Positions 50 to 21,303 of a stretch of 21,353 nt of DNA are shown in pieces. The position numbers and the translations under genes are program-made. Source of the DNA: a virus; UHGV virus genome UHGV-0143643. One strand, written 5' to 3'. Position 1 is the stretch's first letter. The number at the start of each line of letters is the position of its first letter. Below the pieces are notes generated by a model, which saw only the letters and a list, made by a program, of their open reading frames with translations, made no database searches and had not been told where the DNA came from.

Positions 50-829
50 ATGAAGATAATCTGCAGATTATTATTGGCGATGGCATGTTTGTGTCTGGCA
101 AACATATCCTGGGCTACTGTTTGTGCAAATAGTACTGGCGTAGCAGAAGATGAACACTATGATCTCTCAAATGTCTTTAATAGCACCAATAACCAGCCAG
201 GGCAGATTGTTGTTTTACCGGAAAAATCCGGCTGGGTAGGTGTGTCAGCAATTTGTCCACCCGGCACGCTGGTGAATTATACATACCGTAGTTATGTCAC
301 CAACTTTATTGTTCAGGAAACTATCGATAATTATAAATATATGCAATTAAATGATTATCTATTGGGTGCGATGAGTCTGGTTGATAGCGTGATGGATATT
401 CAATTTCCCCCGCAAAATTATATTCGTATGGGAACAGATCCTAACGTTTCGCAAAACCTTCCGTTCGGGGTGATGGATTCTCGTTTGATATTTCGTTTAA
501 AGGTTATTCGGCCCTTTATTAACATGGTGGAGATCCCCAGACAGGTGATGTTTACCGTGTATGTGACATCAACGCCTTACGATCCGTTGGTTACACCTGT
601 TTATACCATTAGTTTTGGTGGCCGGGTTGAAGTACCGCAAAACTGCGAATTAAATGCCGGGCAGATTGTTGAATTTGATTTTGGTGATATCGGCGCATCG
701 TTATTTAGTGCGGCAGGTCCGGGTAATCGACCTGCTGGTGTCAATACGACTCAACGTCGCTGGATTGACTTGAACACCCGCAGCAACATGCTGCAAAGTG
801 AAACCATGCGCCTTACGCACATTTCGTAA
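50..829 (+). CDS. sfmH: Fimbrial adhesin SfmH-like, N-terminal (signal peptide + lectin domain) portion. The frame looks authentic only to about 742; the tail to the stop at 829 is read-through into phage immunity-region DNA.
   Basis: Signal peptide MKIICRLLLAMACLCLANISWA; FimH-like layout (mature start TVCANSTG, VPQNCELNAGQIVEFDFGDIG resembling FimH GGCDVSARDVTVTLPDYPG). The C-terminus ...TMRLTHIS lacks the usual fimbrial terminal beta-strand, so it is truncated. Confidence 0.7.
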   Translation: MKIICRLLLAMACLCLANISWATVCANSTGVAEDEHYDLSNVFNSTNNQPGQIVVLPEKSGWVGVSAICPPGTLVNYTYRSYVTNFIVQETIDNYKYMQLNDYLLGAMSLVDSVMDIQFPPQNYIRMGTDPNVSQNLPFGVMDSRLIFRLKVIRPFINMVEIPRQVMFTVYVTSTPYDPLVTPVYTISFGGRVEVPQNCELNAGQIVEFDFGDIGASLFSAAGPGNRPAGVNTTQRRWIDLNTRSNMLQSETMRLTHIS

Positions 830-841
830 TGGTGATTGCAT
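743..841 (-). CDS. Cro-like XRE-family HTH protein, 5' portion (first 33 codons) separated from its 3' portion by the inversion junction; the uninterrupted minus-strand ORF runs 704..841
   Basis: Minus-strand ATG at 841-839 preceded by GGAGGG; translation MQSPLRNVRKAHGFTLQHVAAGVQVNPATLSRI is a textbook HTH N-terminus. After about 743 the frame continues into antisense sfmH sequence (DTSRSITRTCRTK, stop). Confidence 0.55.
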
Positions 842-855
842 ATGCCCTCCAAATA

Positions 856-932
856 TTGCGCGTTATGCATGTTATTTCACGCAATTATTTTGCGCAAGTT
901 GATTTGCTTATCACGCAATAAAGAAATGTAAT
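856..932. promoter_or_regulatory. Immunity-region operator/promoter cluster (O_R-like): divergent promoters for the cI-like gene (plus) and cro-like gene (minus) with repeated CGCAA/TTGCG half-sites
   Basis: Half-sites TTGCG 856-860, CGCAA 880-884, TTGCG 890-894, CGCAA 914-918 (perfect dyad CGCAA-N5-TTGCG at 880-894). Plus strand TTGCTT(904-909)-N17-TGTAAT(927-932) ends about 7 nt before the cI ATG (leaderless-type). Minus strand TTGCGC-N17-TAACAT lies upstream of the cro ATG. Confidence 0.5.
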
Positions 933-938
933 AAACGC

Positions 939-1631
939 ATGAACATAGGAAACCGAGTCAGACAACTTCGCCAAGCGAAGAACATGAAAATCGCCGATCT
1001 CGCTGAAGCAATAGGAGTAGATGCGGCGAACATCTCGCGCTTAGAAACGGGTAAGCAAAAACAATTTACCGAACAAACACTGAGTAATATTGCCAAGAGC
1101 TTAGGTGTTGATATTGCTGATCTCTTTACCTCTGCCCACAAAAGTAATACTGTATATAAAAACAGTAATAATGAGGATGTTGCGCAGGTGAAGGATGTGT
1201 TCCGTATTGAAATGCTGGATATCAGTGCCAGTGCGGGAAATGGCCTTATCCAGGGCGGTGATGTCATTGATGTGATTCATGCCATTGAATACAGAACTGA
1301 TAATGCTGTATCGATGTTTGGTGGACGACCAGCAAATCACATTAAAGTTATCAACGTTCGTGGGGACAGTATGTGTCCAACCATTGAGCCAGGAGATCTC
1401 ATCTTCGTTGATGTCAGCATCAATCAGTTTGATGGTGATGGTATATATGTCTTTGGTTTTGATGACAAAATATACGTTAAAAGACTTCAAATGATTCCTG
1501 ACAAACTGCTGGTGATTTCTGATAACCAGATTTACCGTGAATGGGGAATTACTAGCGAAAACGAACACCGATTCATGGTCTTTGGAAAGGTCTTAATCAG
1601 TCAGTCGCAAACCCTTAAGAGACATAATTAA
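939..1631 (+). CDS. Phage repressor, cI-like (N-terminal XRE HTH + C-terminal S24 LexA-like autopeptidase)
   Basis: HTH motif LRQAKNMKIADLAEAIGVDAANISRLETGK; S24 catalytic Ser in VRGDSMCPTI and Lys in YVKRL; sits at a divergent operator region. Confidence 0.9.
   Translation: MNIGNRVRQLRQAKNMKIADLAEAIGVDAANISRLETGKQKQFTEQTLSNIAKSLGVDIADLFTSAHKSNTVYKNSNNEDVAQVKDVFRIEMLDISASAGNGLIQGGDVIDVIHAIEYRTDNAVSMFGGRPANHIKVINVRGDSMCPTIEPGDLIFVDVSINQFDGDGIYVFGFDDKIYVKRLQMIPDKLLVISDNQIYREWGITSENEHRFMVFGKVLISQSQTLKRHN
1148..1167. promoter_or_regulatory. Near-consensus LexA (SOS) box TACTGTATATAAAAACAGTA, located inside the cI-like coding sequence
   Basis: Matches CTGT-N8-ACAG with TA flanks and an all-A/T core; palindromic ends ACTGT/ACAGT. 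Confidence 0.45.
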
Positions 1632-1650
1632 CCTCAATATCCCATCCATC

Positions 1651-1672
1651 GGCCACCGAAAGGTGGCTTTTT
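1651..1672 (+). terminator. Rho-independent terminator downstream of the cI-like gene
   Basis: GCCACC-GAAA-GGTGGC hairpin followed by TTTTT, 20 nt after the stop codon. Confidence 0.7.
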
Positions 1673-1685
1673 ACTACCTATAAAT

Positions 1686-1722
1686 TTGCATACCTCGCAA
1701 ATATCACTTACATATCTCGCAA
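1686..1722 (+). promoter_or_regulatory. pL-like early-left promoter with O_L-like operator half-sites
   Basis: TTGCAT(1686-1691)-N17-TACATA(1709-1714); CGCAA half-sites at 1696-1700 and 1718-1722 of the same type as next to the repressor start. Confidence 0.45.
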
Positions 1723-1886
1723 TTTAATTTTATCTTTTGTTCCAGACCAACTACAGGATTACAACAAAATCTGGTTGCAACACGGTGCATGTGTCGTAAG
1801 CAGTCAGTAAATGTCAAAAACGAACAGGCAGGACGCCCACGAAGTAGCCGCCTGGGGCATATGAAGTCCAGGATGATTCGTTAGCA

Positions 1887-1911
1887 ACAAAAAAGCGCCC
1901 TACAGGACGCT
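1887..1911 (-). terminator. Rho-independent terminator for the minus-strand gene 1951..2442
   Basis: On the minus strand GCGTCC-TGTA-GGGCGC hairpin followed by TTTTTT, about 40 nt downstream of the stop. Confidence 0.6.
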
Positions 1912-1950
1912 TAGCTCTTTAGCAATCTGGATATCCACAACAGTAGTAAT

Positions 1951-2442
1951 CTACAGATTGCCGTTAAGTTTTCTGGACAACTCCTCAATGGATGGAGGCG
2001 ATACGTAATCCGGATTTTTATTCATCAGAAACTTATTTTCACAGTGGAGGCACCTGCTTTTATGAAAAAGCTCATCTTCGCTAACCGGGAATGGTTGAAG
2101 TATCGATACTATCTTTTGTCCAAAACATTTTGGGCAAAGATGCATGGTTATGCTGCCACCGTTCACGATTACCTCCTTCGAGTATACAAAAGTACCCGAC
2201 TCAAGTTGGTTAAGGATATAGCCTTCCGTCTGAGCCTCAAAGTTTTCGAATTCTGCAATTTTAGCTTTGAGAGAAGCATTTATTTCTTGATAAGAGCCCA
2301 CCAGTTCAACGAGAGACACGCATTCGCGCTGAATAGACGCAAGCTTTGAGTTCAGCTCACCAATAGCCGCATTTACTTCAGCTTGAGTTTTTGCCTCGTT
2401 CATTAGTTTTGCAATCTGGGCTGTTTCACGAATAGCCGTCAT
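1951..2442 (-). CDS. Hypothetical moron protein: N-terminal coiled-coil plus C-terminal MqsA/YgiT-like zinc ribbon (CPKC ... CLHCENKFLMNK); convergent with the repressor gene. Alternative GTG start at 2466.
   Basis: The long ORF 1951..2730 has an Arg/Pro-rich low-complexity N-terminal extension that reads antisense through GC-rich structured DNA, so the start is placed at ATG 2442 (MTAIRET...). Heptad-like N-terminal half; C-terminal CxxC-N24-CxHCE motif resembles the MqsA N-terminal zinc domain (CPVC ... CVHCEESIMNK). Own terminator present. Confidence 0.75.
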   Translation of the reverse strand: MTAIRETAQIAKLMNEAKTQAEVNAAIGELNSKLASIQRECVSLVELVGSYQEINASLKAKIAEFENFEAQTEGYILNQLESGTFVYSKEVIVNGGSITMHLCPKCFGQKIVSILQPFPVSEDELFHKSRCLHCENKFLMNKNPDYVSPPSIEELSRKLNGNL

Positions 2443-2480
2443 TGCTGCCGTTAATTCAGCGATCACATTGAATACTCTTA

Positions 2481-2528
2481 TTGTTGTTGGGGATATCCAG
2501 ATTAACCGAATCCTTGTTGTTGGGGAAT
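2481..2528. repeat. Two direct copies of TTGTTGTTGGGGA (2481-2493 and 2516-2528; 35-bp period) immediately upstream of the minus-strand gene start
   Basis: Exact 13-bp direct repeat seen in the sequence; position suits a regulatory binding site. Confidence 0.5.
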
Positions 2529-2680
2529 AACCAGGTCCACCTCGCCTGATGTGGCTAAAAGCAGGCACATAACAGCTAAGTATTTTCAACCAGAGAGAAT
2601 CCTTAGCGTTGTGGTGAATGCGGCTCAGCGCACGCGGGTTAAGGTTGAGGCTGACAGTCGACCTTCTGTGGATACCCCCC

Positions 2681-2726
2681 CGCCTGGTGTGCAACCTTCG
2701 CCAGGCACCGGGAGGCACCCGGCACC
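2681..2726 (+). promoter_or_regulatory. GC-rich structured leader element (two stem-loops, triple GGCACC repeat) upstream of the terminator in the early-left transcript
   Basis: Hairpin GCCTGG(2682-2687)/CCAGGC(2701-2706); hairpin CCGGG(2708-2712)/CCCGG(2718-2722); GGCACC at 2704, 2714 and 2721. Confidence 0.3.
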
Positions 2727-2753
2727 ACAACTTTATGCTGTGTGTAGTCCTGG

Positions 2754-2800
2754 CGGTACCAGTTTGTACCCTTGCTTCCGGCTGGTACCGTCCTTTTTTG
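2754..2800 (+). terminator. Strong rho-independent terminator in the early-left leader, upstream of the YfdP-like gene
   Basis: CGGTACCAG(2754-2762) pairs with CTGGTACCG(2782-2790), followed by TCCTTTTTTG; three GGTACC-type palindromes allow alternative pairings. Confidence 0.6.
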
Positions 2801-2936
2801 CAAAACAGAGAAGAGCATCACCGGACGACGGGCTCATAACCCAATCCATCCGGGCGGCTGCCACCGCAGGTGTTCTTCTCTGTTTTGTGGAGAAACCAAC
2901 CGACCTTGCAGGGTCGATATGATGAGGAGCAGCAAA

Positions 2937-3299
2937 ATGGCTAGCGAACGCAGTACTGATGTGCAGGCATTTATCGGGGAGCTGGACGGCGGCGTATTTG
3001 AAACCAAAATCGGCGCAGTTCTCAGTGAGGTCGCTTCCGGTGTGATGAACACGAAAACCAAAGGGAAGGTCTCACTCAATCTGGAAATCGAACCGTTTGA
3101 TGAGAACCGTGTGAAAATCAAACACAAACTCTCATATGTTCGCCCAACTAACCGCGGGAAAATTTCCGAAGAAGACACCACCGAAACGCCGATGTATGTC
3201 AATCGCGGTGGTCGCCTGACTATTCTGCAGGAAGACCAGGGACAATTACTGACTCTTGCCGGTGAACCTGACGGAAAACTCCGCGCAGCAGGTCATTAA
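2937..3299 (+). CDS. Phage early protein, YfdP-like (120 aa)
   Basis: ATG 2937 preceded by GAGGAG; the longer ORF from 2772 is an upstream extension through the terminator. Size and order match the CPS-53 yfdP-yfdT block as recalled. Confidence 0.75.
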   Translation: MASERSTDVQAFIGELDGGVFETKIGAVLSEVASGVMNTKTKGKVSLNLEIEPFDENRVKIKHKLSYVRPTNRGKISEEDTTETPMYVNRGGRLTILQEDQGQLLTLAGEPDGKLRAAGH

Positions 3300-3364
3300 T
3301 ATCGTTTTTAATAAACTGATTATTTCTCTCATCACTGAATATTTTTATATAGTGAGGACTTATT

Positions 3365-4189
3365 ATGTCTCAGAACTTAGACGCAACCGCAATTAATCAA
3401 ATCCATGCCCTTATTTCTGCTCAGGGTGTTAATGAAATTATCAGTAAGATTGGTGCCGATGCTGTGGCATTGCCTGAGAATTTCCGCATTCATGATCTGG
3501 AAAAATTTAATTTAAATCGCTTCCGTTTCCGTGGTGCGCTTTCCACTGCCAGCATCGATGACTTTACCCGTTATTCTAAAGATCTTGCAGATGAAGGCAC
3601 CCGCTGCTTTATCGATGCCGATAATATGCGAGCCGTCAGTGTGCTTAACCTGGGTACTATTGATGAACCAGGTCACGCAGATAACACTGCCACTCTCAAA
3701 CTGAAAAAGACAGCACCGTTCTCTGCTCTGTTGTCTGTTAACGGCGAGCGTAACTCCCAGAAGTCACTGGCAGAATGGATCGAAGACTGGGCCGACTACC
3801 TTGTGGGCTTTGATGCTAATGGTGACGCCATTCAAGCAACAAAAGCGGCTGCGGCAGTCCGTAAAATCACGATTGAAGCAAACCAGACCGCTGATTTTGA
3901 AGATAATGACTTCAGCGGCAAACGCTCCCTGATGGAGTCTGTCGAAGCGAAGACCAAAGACATTATGCCAGTGGCATTTGAATTTAAATGCGTTCCGTTT
4001 GAAGGTCTGAAAGAACGTCCGTTTAAATTACGCCTCAGCATTATCACTGGCGATCGTCCTGTACTGGTTCTGCGCATTATTCAGCTGGAAGCGGTGCAGG
4101 AAGAAATGGCTAACGAATTTCGTGATCTGCTTGTTGAGAAATTCAAAGACAGCAAAGTAGAAACCTTTATTGGTACTTTCACCGCCTGA
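3365..4189 (+). CDS. Phage early protein, YfdQ-like (DUF2303-type, 274 aa)
   Basis: Clean 274-aa ORF in operon context; family assignment from memory. Confidence 0.8.
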
Positions 4190-4316
4190 TTTCATTACTG
4201 CAAATGCCCCTGCGGGGGCATTTATGGAAACGTAATTAACTCAATAATCACCGGATGGTGAGGGCTTCCTTTTACCAGAATTCAGCGCGGTGCAGTGCAT
4301 ATACGTGGAGAACAAA

Positions 4317-4853
4317 ATGTCATTTATTAAAACTTTTTCCGGGAAGCATTTTTATTATGACAAGATAAATAAAGACGACATCGATATTAACGATATCGCG
4401 GTTTCCCTTTCAAATATCTGTCGCTTTGCCGGTCATCTTTCGCACTTCTACAGCGTCGCCCAACATGCGGTTCTTTGCAGCCAGCTGGTGCCGCAGGAAT
4501 TTGCTTTTGAAGCGTTAATGCATGATGCAACAGAAGCGTATTGCCAGGATATTCCCGCTCCACTGAAACGCCTTCTTCCTGACTATAAACGGATGGAAGA
4601 AAAAATAGACGCCGTAATCCGTGAGAAATACGGGTTACCCCCGGTTATGAGCACGCCTGTGAAATATGCCGATCTCATCATGCTGGCAACCGAACGCCGC
4701 GATCTCGGGCTTGATGATGGCTCTTTCTGGCCTGTACTGGAAGGCATCCCGGCAACAGAGATGTTCAACGTGATTCCACTGGCACCGGGTCATGCCTACG
4801 GGATGTTTATGGAACGTTTTAACGATTTATCGGAGTTACGCAAATGCGCATGA
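4317..4853 (+). CDS. HD-domain phosphohydrolase, YfdR-like 5'-deoxynucleotidase (178 aa)
   Basis: Start MSFIKTF with GGAGAA RBS (the ORF track starts 27 nt earlier); H...HD motif (AGHLSHF ... LMHDATEAY). Confidence 0.8.
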   Translation: MSFIKTFSGKHFYYDKINKDDIDINDIAVSLSNICRFAGHLSHFYSVAQHAVLCSQLVPQEFAFEALMHDATEAYCQDIPAPLKRLLPDYKRMEEKIDAVIREKYGLPPVMSTPVKYADLIMLATERRDLGLDDGSFWPVLEGIPATEMFNVIPLAPGHAYGMFMERFNDLSELRKCA

Positions 4854-5206
4854 ATGTTTTCGAAATGGAAGGGTTTCTTCGCGGGAAATGTGTACCGCGA
4901 GATCTGAAAGTGAATGAAACAAATGCTGAGTACCTGTTACGTAAATTCGACGCGCTTGAAGCTAAATGTGCGGCACTGGAAAACAAAATAATACCAGTGT
5001 CAGCTGAACTGCCACCAGCAAATGAAAGTGTTCTGTTATTTGATGCTAACGGAGAAGGCTGGCTGATTGGCTGGCGTTCTCTCTGGTACACCTGGGGACA
5101 AAAAGAAACCGGAGAATGGCAGTGGACATTTCAGGTCGGGGACCTTGAAAACGTCAATATCACTCACTGGGCAGTAATGCCAAAAGCACCGGAGGCTGGA
5201 GCATAA
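4844..5206 (+). CDS. Phage early protein, YfdS-like (120 aa)
   Basis: Start overlaps the upstream stop; ORF is translationally coupled on both sides. Confidence 0.75.
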   Translation: MRMNVFEMEGFLRGKCVPRDLKVNETNAEYLLRKFDALEAKCAALENKIIPVSAELPPANESVLLFDANGEGWLIGWRSLWYTWGQKETGEWQWTFQVGDLENVNITHWAVMPKAPEAGA

Positions 5207-5511
5207 TGACCACATTTACCAATAAAGAACTGATTAAAGAAATCAAAGAACGAATCAGCAGCCTAGAGGTTCGAGACGATATTGAGCGCCGTGCTTATGA
5301 AATCGCACTCGTATCTCTGGAAGTAGAGCCAGATGAACGCGAAGCCTATGAATTATTCATGGAAAAGCGTTTCGGTGACTTAGTAGATCGTCGGAGAGCA
5401 AAAAACGGCGATAACGAATACATGGCATGGGATATGACTCTCGGTTGGATCGTCTGGCAGCAACGAGCTGTTATCCATTTTTCAACAATGACACAGCAAG
5501 AGGTGAAATAA
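5206..5511 (+). CDS. Phage early protein, YfdT-like (101 aa)
   Basis: TAATG overlap with the upstream gene and with the downstream xis-like start. Confidence 0.75.
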   Translation: MTTFTNKELIKEIKERISSLEVRDDIERRAYEIALVSLEVEPDEREAYELFMEKRFGDLVDRRRAKNGDNEYMAWDMTLGWIVWQQRAVIHFSTMTQQEVK

Positions 5512-5882
5512 TGGAGCCATACAGCCTCACACTCGATGAGGCCTGTCAGTTTCTTCAGATATCCAGACCAACCGCCACCAACTGGATACGAACAGGCCGC
5601 CTACAGGCAACACGTAAAGATCCAACCAAGCCAAAATCTCCTTACCTCACAACACGGCAAGCCTGCATTGCGGCGCTTCAGTCTCCGCTGCATACTGTCC
5701 AGGTGAGCGCGGGTGATGGCATAACAGAGGAAAGAAAATGTCACTCTTCCGCAGAGGTGAAATATGGTACGCCTCGTACTCGCTCCCGGGCGGGAAGCGA
5801 ATTAAGGAGTCTCTTGGCACAAAGGACAAGCGGCAAGCTCAGGAGTTGCACGACAAGCGAAAAGCAGAACTCTGGCGAGTAG
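5511..5882 (+). CDS. Excisionase / AlpA-like HTH protein; the 3' end is uncertain and the frame overlaps the integrase start by about 145 nt
   Basis: [31 protein letters not shown] is an AlpA/Xis-type HTH; position immediately upstream of int. Confidence 0.5.
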
Positions 5883-6901
5883 AAAAGCTAGGGGATTTAC
5901 CTGATGTCACTTTTGAAGAGGCCTGCCTAAGATGGCTTGAGGAAAAGGCTGATAAAAAATCTCTCGATTCAGATAAAAGCCGGATTGAGTTCTGGCTTGA
6001 ACATTTTGAGGGTATAAGGCTTAAAGATATCTCGGAGGCAAAGATTTACTCTGCTGTAAGCAGAATGCATAACAGAAAGACGAAAGAAATATGGAAACAG
6101 AAAGTTCGGGCCGCCATCAGGAAAGGTAAAGAACCGCCTGTTTATGAACCAAAGCCAGTATCAACTCAGACAAAGGCAAAGCATCTTGCCATGATAAAGG
6201 CCATTCTCCGTGCTGCAGAACGCGACTGGAAGTGGCTGGAAAAAGCGCCTGTCATCAAGATACCAGCGGTCAGAAACAAGCGAGTCAGATGGCTGGAAAA
6301 GGAGGAAGCAAAACGCCTTATTGATGAGTGCCCCGAACCACTGAAATCTGTCGTCAAGTTTGCGCTGGCAACTGGTCTGAGAAAGTCGAACATCATAAAT
6401 CTGGAATGGCAACAAATCGACATGCAGCGACGAGTTGCCTGGGTGAATCCAGAAGAGAGCAAATCAAACCGCGCCATTGGTGTGGCGCTGAACGATACCG
6501 CCTGTAAAGTGTTGCGTGATCAAATAGGCAAGCATCACAAATGGGTGTTTGTACATACCAAGGCGGCTAAGCGAGCAGATGGAACATCAACGCCTGCGGT
6601 CAGGAAGATGCGCATCGACAGCAAGACATCATGGCTATCAGCTTGTCGTCGTGCAGGAATTGAAGATTTCCGTTTCCATGACCTCAGACACACCTGGGCA
6701 AGCTGGCTGATTCAGTCAGGCGTCCCATTATCAGTGCTTCAGGAAATGGGCGGATGGGAGTCCATAGAAATGGTTCGTAGGTATGCTCACCTTGCGCCTA
6801 ATCATTTGACAGAGCATGCGAGGAAAATAGACGACATTTTTGGTGATAATGTCCCAAATATGTCCCACTCTGGAATTATGGAGGATATAAAGAAGGCGTA
6901 A
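5738..6901 (+). CDS. int: Tyrosine-type site-specific integrase (lambda/DLP12 IntD-like, 387 aa)
   Basis: N-terminus [34 protein letters not shown]; catalytic-region motifs [10 protein letters not shown] and RRYAHL; stop 16 nt from the tRNA 3' end. Confidence 0.95.
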
Positions 6902-6916
6902 CTGATTGAATTGTAA

Positions 6917-6993
6917 TGGCGCGCCCTGCAGGATTCGAACCTGCGGCCCACGACTTAGAAGGTCGTTGCTCTATCCAACTGAGCTAAGGGCGC
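6917..6993 (-). tRNA. argU: tRNA-Arg (anticodon UCU), argU-type; its 3' end abuts the integrase gene (prophage attachment site)
   Basis: Cloverleaf read by hand: acceptor GCGCCCU/AGGGCGC, D-arm GCUC/GAGC, anticodon stem ACGAC/GUCGU with loop CUUCUAA, T-arm GCAGG-UUCGAAU-CCUGC, encoded CCA. Confidence 0.95.
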
Positions 6994-7235
6994 GTTGATA
7001 CCGCAATGCGGTGTAATCGCGTGAATTATACGGTCAACCCTTGCTGAGTCAATGGCTTTTGATCTGGTTGCTGAACAAGTGAACGACCGCGTCTGATTTT
7101 CTGATTTATTTCGCTATAGCGGCAAACAAACGCACACCGCTGCGCGTCTGAATCAAGAAAACCCGTATTTTCATGTATCAAAGTACAATTTACCGCCCTA
7201 ACGGAAAATTGTCCGCTCCTATGAGACTGGTAACT

Positions 7236-19432: not shown

Positions 19433-19996
19433 ATGGAAGTCAACAAAAAGCAGCTGGCTGACATTTTCGGTGCGAGTATGCGTGGCTGGACGATTAAGGG
19501 CAAACCTGCCAGTGGTCGAGCCGTATTATCTCAGGAACAGGACGGCATTAAATCGCACACCCACAGCGCCAGCGCATCCAGTACGGATTTGGGGACGAAA
19601 ACCACATCGTCGTTTGATTACGGCACTAAATCCACGAATAACACCGGGGCACATACACACAGTGTGAGCGGCTCTACAAACTCGGCTGGAGCACACACAC
19701 ACTCACTAGCCAACGTGAACACGGCTAGTGCTAACTCCGGTGCTGGTAGTGCATCAACAAGATTGTCTGTTGTGCATAATCAAAACTATGCAACATCATC
19801 TGCTGGCGCACATACCCACTCACTGTCCGGCACTGCTGCAAGCGCAGGTGCACACGCACATACTGTCGGTATTGGTGCTCATACGCACTCGGTTGCGATT
19901 GGCTCACATGGACACACCATCACCGTTAACGCTGCTGGTAACGCGGAAAACACCGTCAAAAACATCGCATTTAACTACATTGTGAGGCTTGCATAA
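19433..19996 (+). pseudogene. Deletion fusion: first 15 codons of terminase small subunit Nu1/NohD ([15 protein letters not shown]) joined in frame to the C-terminal tip of a side tail-fibre protein with GAHTHS His-rich repeats
   Basis: Lambda Nu1 start recognised exactly up to GGTGCGAGTAT (about 19479), after which the sequence is a tail-fibre C-terminus; all head and tail genes between are missing. Confidence 0.75.
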
Positions 19997-20580
19997 TGGC
20001 ATTCAGAATGAGTGAACAACCACGGACCATAAAAATTTATAATCTGCTGGCCGGAACTAATGAATTTATTGGTGAAGGTGATGCATATATTCCGCCTCAT
20101 ACAGGTCTGCCAGCAAACAGTACCGATATTGCACCGCCAGATATTCCGGCAGGCTTCGTGGCTGTTTTCAACAGTGATGAGGCATCGTGGCATCTCGTTG
20201 AAGACCATCGGGGTAAAACGGTTTATGACGTAGCGTCAGGGGACGCGTTATTTATTTCTGAACTCGGTCCGTTACCGGAAAATGTTACCTGGTTATCGCC
20301 GGAAGGGGAGTTTCAGAAGTGGAACGGCACAGCCTGGGTGAAAGATGCAGAAGCAGAAAAACTGTTCCGGATCCGAGAGGCGGAAGAAACAAAAAACAGC
20401 CTGATGCAGGTAGCCAGTGAGCATATTGCGCCACTTCAGGATGCTGTGGATCTGGAAATCGCAACGGAGGAAGAAACCTCATTGCTGGAAGCCTGGAAAA
20501 AGTATCGGGTGTTGCTGAACCGTGTTGATACATCAACTGCACCTGATATTGAGTGGCCTACGAACCCTGTCAGGGAGTAA
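19996..20580 (+). CDS. Tail fibre assembly protein (Tfa family, 194 aa)
   Basis: TAATG coupling to the tail-fibre fragment; Tfa-like sequence ([43 protein letters not shown]...). Confidence 0.9.
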
Positions 20581-20594
20581 TCATTGGGATTATG

Positions 20595-20643
20595 CCGCAG
20601 CACGTCTTAAGCAAGAACGTGCTGCGGTTGGATGCTATTTTTT
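20595..20643 (+). terminator. Hairpin (11-bp perfect stem) plus T-run between the convergent tfa and methyltransferase genes
   Basis: CCGCAGCACGT (20595-20605) pairs with ACGTGCTGCGG (20617-20627); TTTTTT at 20638-20643. Confidence 0.35.
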
Positions 20644-21303
20644 CCCTGAAGCGGAAAACATTACTACAGTACCTTGAACCTTGGTTTTAACATTCTCGAA
20701 ATGCTCTGAGAGTATATGTGTTAAGCCTTCTTCGGAATCTTTTGTGTTTGAAAAGATGCCTTTCTGATTGTAAATGCGCATCAGTTTTTGACCGAAGCTA
20801 TTGTGCACAACTCCATCGCCAAGAATTGTGGCTCCGTATAGAGTTCCATCGTCAGTTAAGGCCTGCGCCGCATTGCGTATTACACAGCTTTTTGTAGATA
20901 TATTTCCAGGCAGGCAGTGAAGAAGGTAAAACATGGAAATGGAATCAAATTGACCATGTAACGCCGCGGGATAAGGTTCAAAAACATCATGGCTAATTTT
21001 ATGTTTAATTTTTGATTCCCCAGCCCTTGTAGATGCCGCGTTCAGGCTAGCTTCGTTCAAATCCATTAAAGATATCAGACTACTCTCAGGTACGTGAGTA
21101 AGGTAAAACCCAGTTCCAACACCAATATCCAGATGGTTGTTACCTAAATGTTCCAGAAAGTGTGGAAGAAGGTGTTCCTTTGTAGGACATCCCCATGCAA
21201 GCCGATTTGATACTCCCAAAACCCACCAGTCATAAAGCTTTAGGGTAAGTGGTGTGTAAATTTTAGCCCCATCATCTGTGTTTTTTTTCATTAATTTCAC
21301 CAT
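20635..21303 (-). CDS. ybcY: Class I SAM-dependent methyltransferase (YbcY-like, 222 aa)
   Basis: Motif I LDIGVGTGFY; size and position after tfa as in DLP12-type prophages. Confidence 0.85.
   Translation of the reverse strand: MVKLMKKNTDDGAKIYTPLTLKLYDWWVLGVSNRLAWGCPTKEHLLPHFLEHLGNNHLDIGVGTGFYLTHVPESSLISLMDLNEASLNAASTRAGESKIKHKISHDVFEPYPAALHGQFDSISMFYLLHCLPGNISTKSCVIRNAAQALTDDGTLYGATILGDGVVHNSFGQKLMRIYNQKGIFSNTKDSEEGLTHILSEHFENVKTKVQGTVVMFSASGKK

Follow-up and report, generated by a model that had tools for sequence, protein, structure and literature searches.

A divergent rip1-like gene, probably encoding a ring-triggered abortive-infection protein, beside the cI-like repressor of a defective lambdoid prophage of Escherichia coli

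Rip1 (ring interacting pore 1) is an experimentally shown one-protein phage defence, according to a 2026 review (PMC13434031) reporting the work of Patel et al. (2026, Nature 651:1060). Rip1 alone is not toxic and infected cells round up; Pseudomonas phages escape through mutations in the portal protein, and E. coli phages through mutations in the small terminase (PMC13434031). Cryo-EM shows 12 Rip1 subunits encircling an 11-mer small-terminase ring, the N-terminal part of Rip1 being an amphipathic helix and its C-terminal half contacting the ring, and the Rip1-ring complex releases dye from liposomes (PMC13434031). Homologues are widespread in Proteobacteria and mostly prophage-borne (PMC13434031). 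Two further secondary sources agree with this review on the mechanism.

The window, by which we mean the whole stretch of 21,353 nucleotides analysed here (UHGV-0143643), is E. coli chromosome, with the argU tRNA-Arg(TCT) gene at 6917-6993 and an integrase gene directly abutting it. Positions 800-7000 are 99.7% identical to E. coli O22:H8 RM10809-3, in which the region is a DLP12-like lambdoid prophage with the gene order cro-like (-), cI-like XRE/S24 repressor (+), a 516-nt 'hypothetical protein' gene (-), then yfdP, yfdQ, yfdR, yfdT, an xis-like gene and intD (all +), followed by argU. At 19433-21303, a Nu1-type small terminase breaks off after its first ~38 residues and continues into a tail-fibre repeat, with a tail-fibre assembly gene and a methyltransferase gene behind it; the head and tail gene block is thus missing, and the prophage is defective, like DLP12. 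At the gathering threshold, Rfam matches in the whole window are limited to the tRNA-Arg and IS009 (20339-20537), neither of them at the gene of interest. This gene is the minus-strand gene between the repressor and yfdP, referred to below as the rip1-like gene. The features of its immediate surroundings are:

1951-2466, minus strand: rip1-like gene, 171 aa plus stop, GTG start at 2466 (open reading frame, translation, RefSeq CDS, PHROG 1244, Rip1 homology, dN/dS)
2475-2479, minus strand: Shine-Dalgarno-like AAGAG, 8 nt upstream of the GTG at 2466, read from the sequence
1885-1912, minus strand: intrinsic-terminator-like hairpin AAGCGTCCTGTAGGGCGCTT with a T-run, beginning 39 nt past the rip1-like stop codon
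939-1631, plus strand: cI-like XRE/S24 repressor, convergent with the rip1-like gene, with its own terminator at 1651-1668
1686-1722, plus strand: putative OL operators (1686-1700, 1708-1722) and pL region, from a motif common to the cI/cro intergenic region; promoter hexamers presumed

An earlier note, made from the sequence alone, had described a real minus-strand gene beside the cI-like repressor with its own terminator, and both the RefSeq annotation (WP_000559922.1, 'hypothetical protein', with identical coordinates, 1951-2466, minus strand) and the hairpin with its T-run (terminator-scan match at 1912-1893) agree with this description. The hairpin is located in the left flank that is common to loci with other cargo. 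The length of about 163 aa in that note assumed the ATG at 2442 and has to be revised. Homologues from many genera keep the N-terminus 'MIAEL(S/T)AAM', and because of this conservation and the AAGAG the GTG at 2466 is preferred, giving a protein of 171 aa. A sigma-70 consensus scan of 1500-3500 returned no promoter, including upstream of the rip1-like gene, and for this reason expression in the lysogen is treated below as a presumption.

Exact TTGC-N6-CGCAA sites occur only twice in the 21-kb window, at 904-918 in the cI/cro intergenic region and at 1686-1700 just past the cI terminator, and each is paired with a one-mismatch neighbour (856-870 and 1708-1722, respectively). The pair at 1686-1722 is read as OL and the cI/cro intergenic pair as OR, which would place a putative pL at about 1686-1740, firing rightward through the rip1-like gene into yfdP-yfdQ-yfdR-xis-int. 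A consensus scan found no promoter hexamers at the putative pL region. With OL/pL upstream and reading across it, the gene would be antisense to the pL-like transcript, as the earlier note had proposed. The 'rex-equivalent position' of the same note holds only in that the gene adjoins the repressor; lambda rexAB is co-transcribed with cI, whereas the rip1-like gene lies downstream of the putative OL/pL, antisense to the pL transcript. Lambda sieB occupies the equivalent slot, downstream of OL/pL and antisense, and the position also resembles those of HK620 hkaP and HK446 rip1, antisense within the pL operon.

Two further elements lie on the way from the rip1-like gene to yfdP. On the pL-sense strand, the G+C-rich non-coding stretch between the two genes gives a full-length, sub-threshold match to the Rfam STnc100 sRNA (2578-2801, plus strand; 40.3 bits against a gathering score of 47, E 8e-7), which overlaps a PGAP 'frameshifted hypothetical protein' in several strains. 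Just upstream of yfdP there is a 24-nt inverted repeat (2801-2824 and 2864-2887; 83% complementary, 39-nt spacer) that may form a hairpin with a regulatory role in the pL leader, and a similar 18-nt repeat is found at the corresponding place of a Citrobacter locus (L005, 5689-5777).

The gene product is almost certainly a member of the Rip1 family. A single-sequence phmmer search of the PDB retrieved chain 9oox_L, 'ring interacting pore 1 (Rip1)', at E 2.7e-7 (query residues 14-150, chain residues 28-159 of 164); the entry 9OOX is entitled 'Cryo-EM structure of the Escherichia phage HK446 Rip1 in complex with the Enterobacteria phage T6 small terminase'. With a profile of 26 homologues the same chain was matched at E 3.4e-27 and 98 bits (profile 4-152, chain 14-160 of 164), the next PDB match having an E of 0.024, and a profile made without HK446, HK620 or Pseudomonas sequences gave 75 bits for HK446 Rip1, 106 bits for HkaP and 86 bits for DMS3-25. 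In a Foldseek search of the PDB, 9oox_L and 9oox_M were the only significant matches (probability 1.00, TM 0.72 target-normalised, 28% identity). Homology to a characterised member is thus near full-length, and the fold is that of the solved protomer. In PHROGs the protein falls into family 1244, 'unknown function', at E 9e-60. Pfam and NCBIfam scans gave nothing significant, only weak sub-threshold coiled-coil matches, and a PADLOC 2023 scan, which contains no Rip1-family model, returned nothing for this protein. Identity to the characterised Rip1 proteins of HK446 and Pseudomonas is 27-29%, and on sequence grounds the gene is a divergent member, in a separate enterobacterial clade, of a family described in 2026. 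The earlier statement that this was not a described protein is therefore outdated.

The protein has two parts and a cysteine motif, which map to the DNA as follows:

2230-2463, minus strand: N-terminal helical half, residues 2-79 (AlphaFold2 helices, hydrophobic moment); amphipathic pore-forming part by homology to Rip1
2017-2217, minus strand: C-terminal beta-rich domain, residues 84-150 (AlphaFold2 strands with pLDDT >90, aligning to 9OOX Rip1 residues 95-160); ring contact by homology
2041-2136, minus strand: four-cysteine motif C111-x2-C114, 24 residues, C139-x2-C142; predicted zinc ribbon

The AlphaFold2 model, built with 34 homologues, has a mean pLDDT of 89.3 and opens with helices (residues 2-24 and 28-79), after which comes a C-terminal domain of six strands. 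The structure prediction that the earlier note had called for gives a helical N-terminal half, where that note had a predicted coiled coil, within a fold that matches Rip1 (9oox). The mean helical hydrophobic moment of the N-terminal helices is 0.275, with peaks of 0.41-0.44, against 0.203+/-0.041 in shuffles, 4.9% of which reach it, so that their amphipathicity is only moderately above shuffled controls. The order of an N-terminal amphipathic helix and then a C-terminal ring-contacting domain is nevertheless that of Rip1, the moment exceeding that of >95% of the shuffles. No hydrophobic or transmembrane segment is predicted in the protein, the highest 18-residue mean hydrophobicity being 0.34. 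Residues 111-150 carry the motif CPKC-N24-CLHCENKFLMNK, or C111-P-K-C114 ... C139-L-H-C142-ENKFLMNK, much as first noticed, and all four cysteines are invariant in the homologue alignments (n=26 and n=34) and line up with those of HK446 Rip1; HkaP and DMS3-25 have them too. The positions invariant among the 26 homologues are L66, G91, V94, Y95, C111, C114, L123, P125, C139 and C142, and all are kept in the window protein; an (S/T)ILQP motif is also conserved in the family.

The family profile matches 2,716 representatives at 50% clustering (E<=1e-3), 999 of them at E<=1e-10, and nearly all are 145-180 aa long. Of 5,426 complete E. coli genomes, 686 carry the rip1-like gene itself, which is linked in them to different immunity regions. 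The O157:H7 EC4115 allele, with 93.7% nucleotide identity, lies beside a RacR-type repressor in a different prophage, and the dN/dS between the two alleles is 0.14: the gene is under purifying selection. Nine of the ten amino-acid changes between them fall in the C-terminal, presumed sensor, half. In this half (residues 84-150; 2017-2217, minus strand) dS is also higher, 0.27 against 0.09, and the excess of changes and of dS hints at either mosaic recombination or a faster turnover of the presumed sensor domain. The C-terminal changes fit a specificity-determining role, with a dN/dS of 0.16 that is not evidence of positive selection.

The homologues occur in comparable genomic settings. HK446 Rip1 is gp37, on the opposite strand immediately after N in the pL operon. 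HkaP of HK620 and HK630 is encoded on the opposite strand between cIII and hkaQ/N and is a 'putative superinfection exclusion protein' in the HK620 record; a literature search on 'HkaP' returned unrelated papers only. DMS3-25 lies on the opposite strand between DMS3-24 and DMS3-26, genes flanking the terminase region, next to the portal gene, in agreement with the published location of Pseudomonas rip1. In Citrobacter, an orthologue with 62% identity has xis/int on one side and on the other an S24 repressor gene, with which it is convergent, and an intact gene is carried by the inducible ECOR13 phages PhiR49_1 and PhiR29_1. Here and in homologues the gene is therefore a stand-alone prophage gene against the surrounding operon, and the description of the locus as a single-gene, opposite-strand prophage moron is borne out.

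By its membership of the Rip1 family the gene would very probably be an abortive-infection or superinfection defence. This keeps one part of what the earlier note had offered, a single-gene exclusion or abortive-infection factor, while the orphan-antitoxin part finds no support in MqsA/YgiT comparisons. More specifically, the protein is likely to be a ring-triggered, pore-forming abortive-infection protein. What the analysis itself shows is the homology, the fold, the conservation of the cysteines, the genomic setting and the purifying selection; from the described Rip1 we infer lysogen expression, trigger, oligomerisation, pore formation and defence. The rip1-like protein would be made in the lysogen and be harmless alone. 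A superinfecting phage would then make its ring-shaped late proteins, small terminase or portal, as the trigger, and the C-terminal four-cysteine domain would dock around the phage ring. The ring would template a Rip1 oligomer, the N-terminal amphipathic helices of which would gather as a pore in the inner membrane, and the cell would be permeabilised before phage progeny are complete, resulting in abortive infection.

Because the protein shares no more than 27-29% identity with the characterised members, it may depart from them in the specificity of its trigger, or even in its activity. A true Rip1 homologue that has diverged in role, responding to another oligomeric trigger or serving the prophage itself (lysis timing, exclusion at entry), is accordingly the alternative that survives best, though it remains an unlikely one. 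Along with the identity of about 28% to both HK446 and Pseudomonas Rip1, it draws on the enterobacterial clade being distinct, with a conserved C-terminal tail 'NPDYVxPPSxEExxRxLNG' that is absent from HK446 Rip1, on the concentration of allelic substitutions in the sensor half described above, and on the variation in trigger, portal or small terminase, already seen among published Rip1 proteins. The collinear homology over the full length, the shared fold and the same single-gene, opposite-strand moron setting argue against it, and a role in the prophage's own morphogenesis or lysis is improbable because this prophage is defective and has lost its structural genes.

The site in which the rip1-like gene is carried has the following features:

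1914-1925, plus strand: boxA-like GCTCTTTAGCAA on the pL-sense strand, directly before the left arm, read from the sequence
1924-1949, no strand: left arm of an inverted repeat, 26 nt, 22/26 complementary to the right arm
2478-2503, no strand: right arm of the inverted repeat, with predicted mRNA pairing with the left arm
2511-2536: third, degenerate copy of the repeat arm

The element at 1914-1925 resembles the rrn boxA sequence; at other loci it reads GCTCTTTAACAA, with the general form GCTCTTTA(A/G)CAA. In comparison with other E. coli prophages, homology breaks exactly inside the two repeat arms, and in other strains the same flanks enclose unrelated minus-strand genes, the products of which are an ECs1072-family protein, a protein with a signal peptide and a weak match to LprI, or a hypothetical protein of 167 aa. 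When IMG/VR was scanned for the left flank, 55 distinct loci that also have the right flank were recovered, with cargos from several Rip1 clades, the signal-peptide family, the ECs1072 family and others, among them a ~150-aa family with an internal hydrophobic stretch that starts 'MNRDDIIFD'. For four of the alternative cargo proteins, a sub-threshold LprI match was all that Pfam and PADLOC returned. The arms are kept in almost all of the slot loci as AATCTGGATATCC(C/A)CAAC, and with the signal-peptide cargo both are changed, in a matching way, to AATCTGGATGACT. The slot can thus be described as a boxA-like element with an inverted repeat of 9-26 nt (AATCTGGATATCCCCAAC), found also at L005 (5964-6551), L008 (3040-3775), L011 and the IMG/VR loci L013-L130. 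The Citrobacter orthologue is flanked by the same repeat (18 nt, 94% complementary), and there is no inverted repeat around the rip1 genes of HK446, HK620 or DMS3. When the putative mRNA is folded with RNAfold, the arms pair in both the MFE and the centroid structure (z = -3.9, 20 shuffles).

Two other readings of the repeat are not favoured. One is an invertase (hix/gix-like) site, and the window has no invertase gene; the other is a set of repressor operators, and the repeat is unchanged under three different immunity regions. We take it, from these comparisons of sequence, that the rip1-like gene sits in a conserved moron slot. A more speculative proposal, and an unlikely one, is that the enterobacterial Rip1 clade senses a different ring trigger and, separately, that the site is a dedicated, conserved 'expression slot' (boxA-like element, cargo-spanning inverted repeat with maintained complementarity, shared terminator) into which lambdoid prophages swap unrelated single-gene defence or exclusion cargos, the repeat folding the cargo out of the pL transcript or closing the cargo mRNA.

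The segment 741-8713 (7,973 bp), with cI, the rip1-like gene, the early-left genes, int, argU, fimZ and sfmF, is inverted relative to RM10809-3, with breakpoints inside the cro-like gene and a sfmH/fimH-like gene and 3-bp overlaps at the junctions. The inversion junction occurs in 0 of 5,426 complete E. coli genomes, and the inversion may be peculiar to this strain or have arisen in assembly. That the gene is decaying and without function, carried along by a cryptic prophage, would be in keeping with this split through cro, with the defective, DLP12-like state of the prophage and with the lack of a consensus promoter in the scan, but it is very improbable given an intact reading frame with a dN/dS of 0.14, the retention of all family-invariant residues, and intact copies in hundreds of genomes as well as in the inducible phages PhiR49_1 and PhiR29_1.

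The earlier note had likened the C-terminus to the zinc ribbon of MqsA/YgiT, and an orphan antitoxin neutralising an MqsR-like toxin, or a DNA-binding transcription regulator, of this type would follow. When the protein was compared by BLASTP with one manually entered MqsA sequence, only the CxxC...CxxC region aligned, with 14/46 identities (E 0.001, a single comparison only). The profile search suggested in that note gave no MqsA/YgiT match in Pfam or NCBIfam at E<=10, its coiled-coil matches being sub-threshold; PDB sequence searches retrieved no MqsA chain at E<=10 (single sequence) or E<=1 (profile), and MqsA was not among the matches listed in two fold searches. MqsA has a C-terminal XRE-type HTH, whereas neither the Pfam scan nor the AlphaFold2 model contains an HTH. 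No toxin-like gene is adjacent: the neighbours are the cI-like repressor and yfdP, neither open reading frames nor annotation show an MqsR-like partner, as that note had also remarked, and no MqsR-like toxin gene is annotated beside the homologues at any locus examined. The cysteine motif is C-terminal here and N-terminal in MqsA, and the likeness outside the cysteines, 'ENKFLMNK', varies freely in the family (HK620 CPRCKNEYRMYR, DMS3 CHPCNSVVHVEK, HK446 CHRCNASYLFPK). The MqsA likeness is that of two generic CxxC...CxxC ribbons, and the link, having failed in profiles, PDB sequence search and both fold searches, is dropped with a probability close to nil.

A ring-triggered, Rip1-like role would provide a likely function for a 'hypothetical protein' encoded by roughly every eighth complete E. 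coli genome, that of O157:H7 among them, and a DLP12-like prophage, although defective, would have kept a probable abortive-infection gene. The membership also adds a distinct enterobacterial clade to the newly described Rip1 family, and where strains carry the gene it is a practical reason for care in phage therapy and phage typing. The slot of interchangeable, mostly uncharacterised cargos is a cheap source of candidate exclusion and defence genes.

Among known systems, the CT398/HP0958-type proteins (PDB 4ILO) share a coiled coil with a zinc ribbon, at 10% identity and with no relation at the sequence level, and the likeness is probably one of architecture only. The N-terminal zinc domain of MqsA (YgiT) has a ribbon-like CxxC...CxxC motif of similar spacing, at the opposite end of the protein. 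Lambda RexAB is prophage-expressed abortive-infection cargo beside the repressor gene that ends in membrane permeabilisation, but it differs from the rip1-like gene in consisting of two proteins co-transcribed with cI, in its unrelated sequence and in its trigger. SieB of lambda and P22 is analogous in position, being an opposite-strand exclusion gene inside the pL operon; it is a membrane protein, in contrast to the rip1-like protein with no predicted transmembrane segment, and the Pfam scan of the latter gave no SieB family. HkaP of HK620 and HK630 (PHROG 1244) belongs to the same family (106 bits to the profile, 28% identity) and is likewise antisense in the pL operon, although its gene is placed between cIII and hkaQ/N and, unlike the window gene, has no flanking inverted repeat. 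The closest system is Rip1 itself (HK446 gp37; Casadabanvirus DMS3-25 and D3112 orf25). The window gene is set apart by its 27-29% identity, its separate enterobacterial clade with the extra conserved C-terminal tail, and its location directly after cI/OL, where HK446 rip1 follows N and Pseudomonas rip1 lies between terminase genes. Both are single, prophage-borne, opposite-strand genes for proteins of about 165-175 aa that are homologous over their full length and share one fold, with N-terminal helices followed by a C-terminal four-cysteine beta domain.
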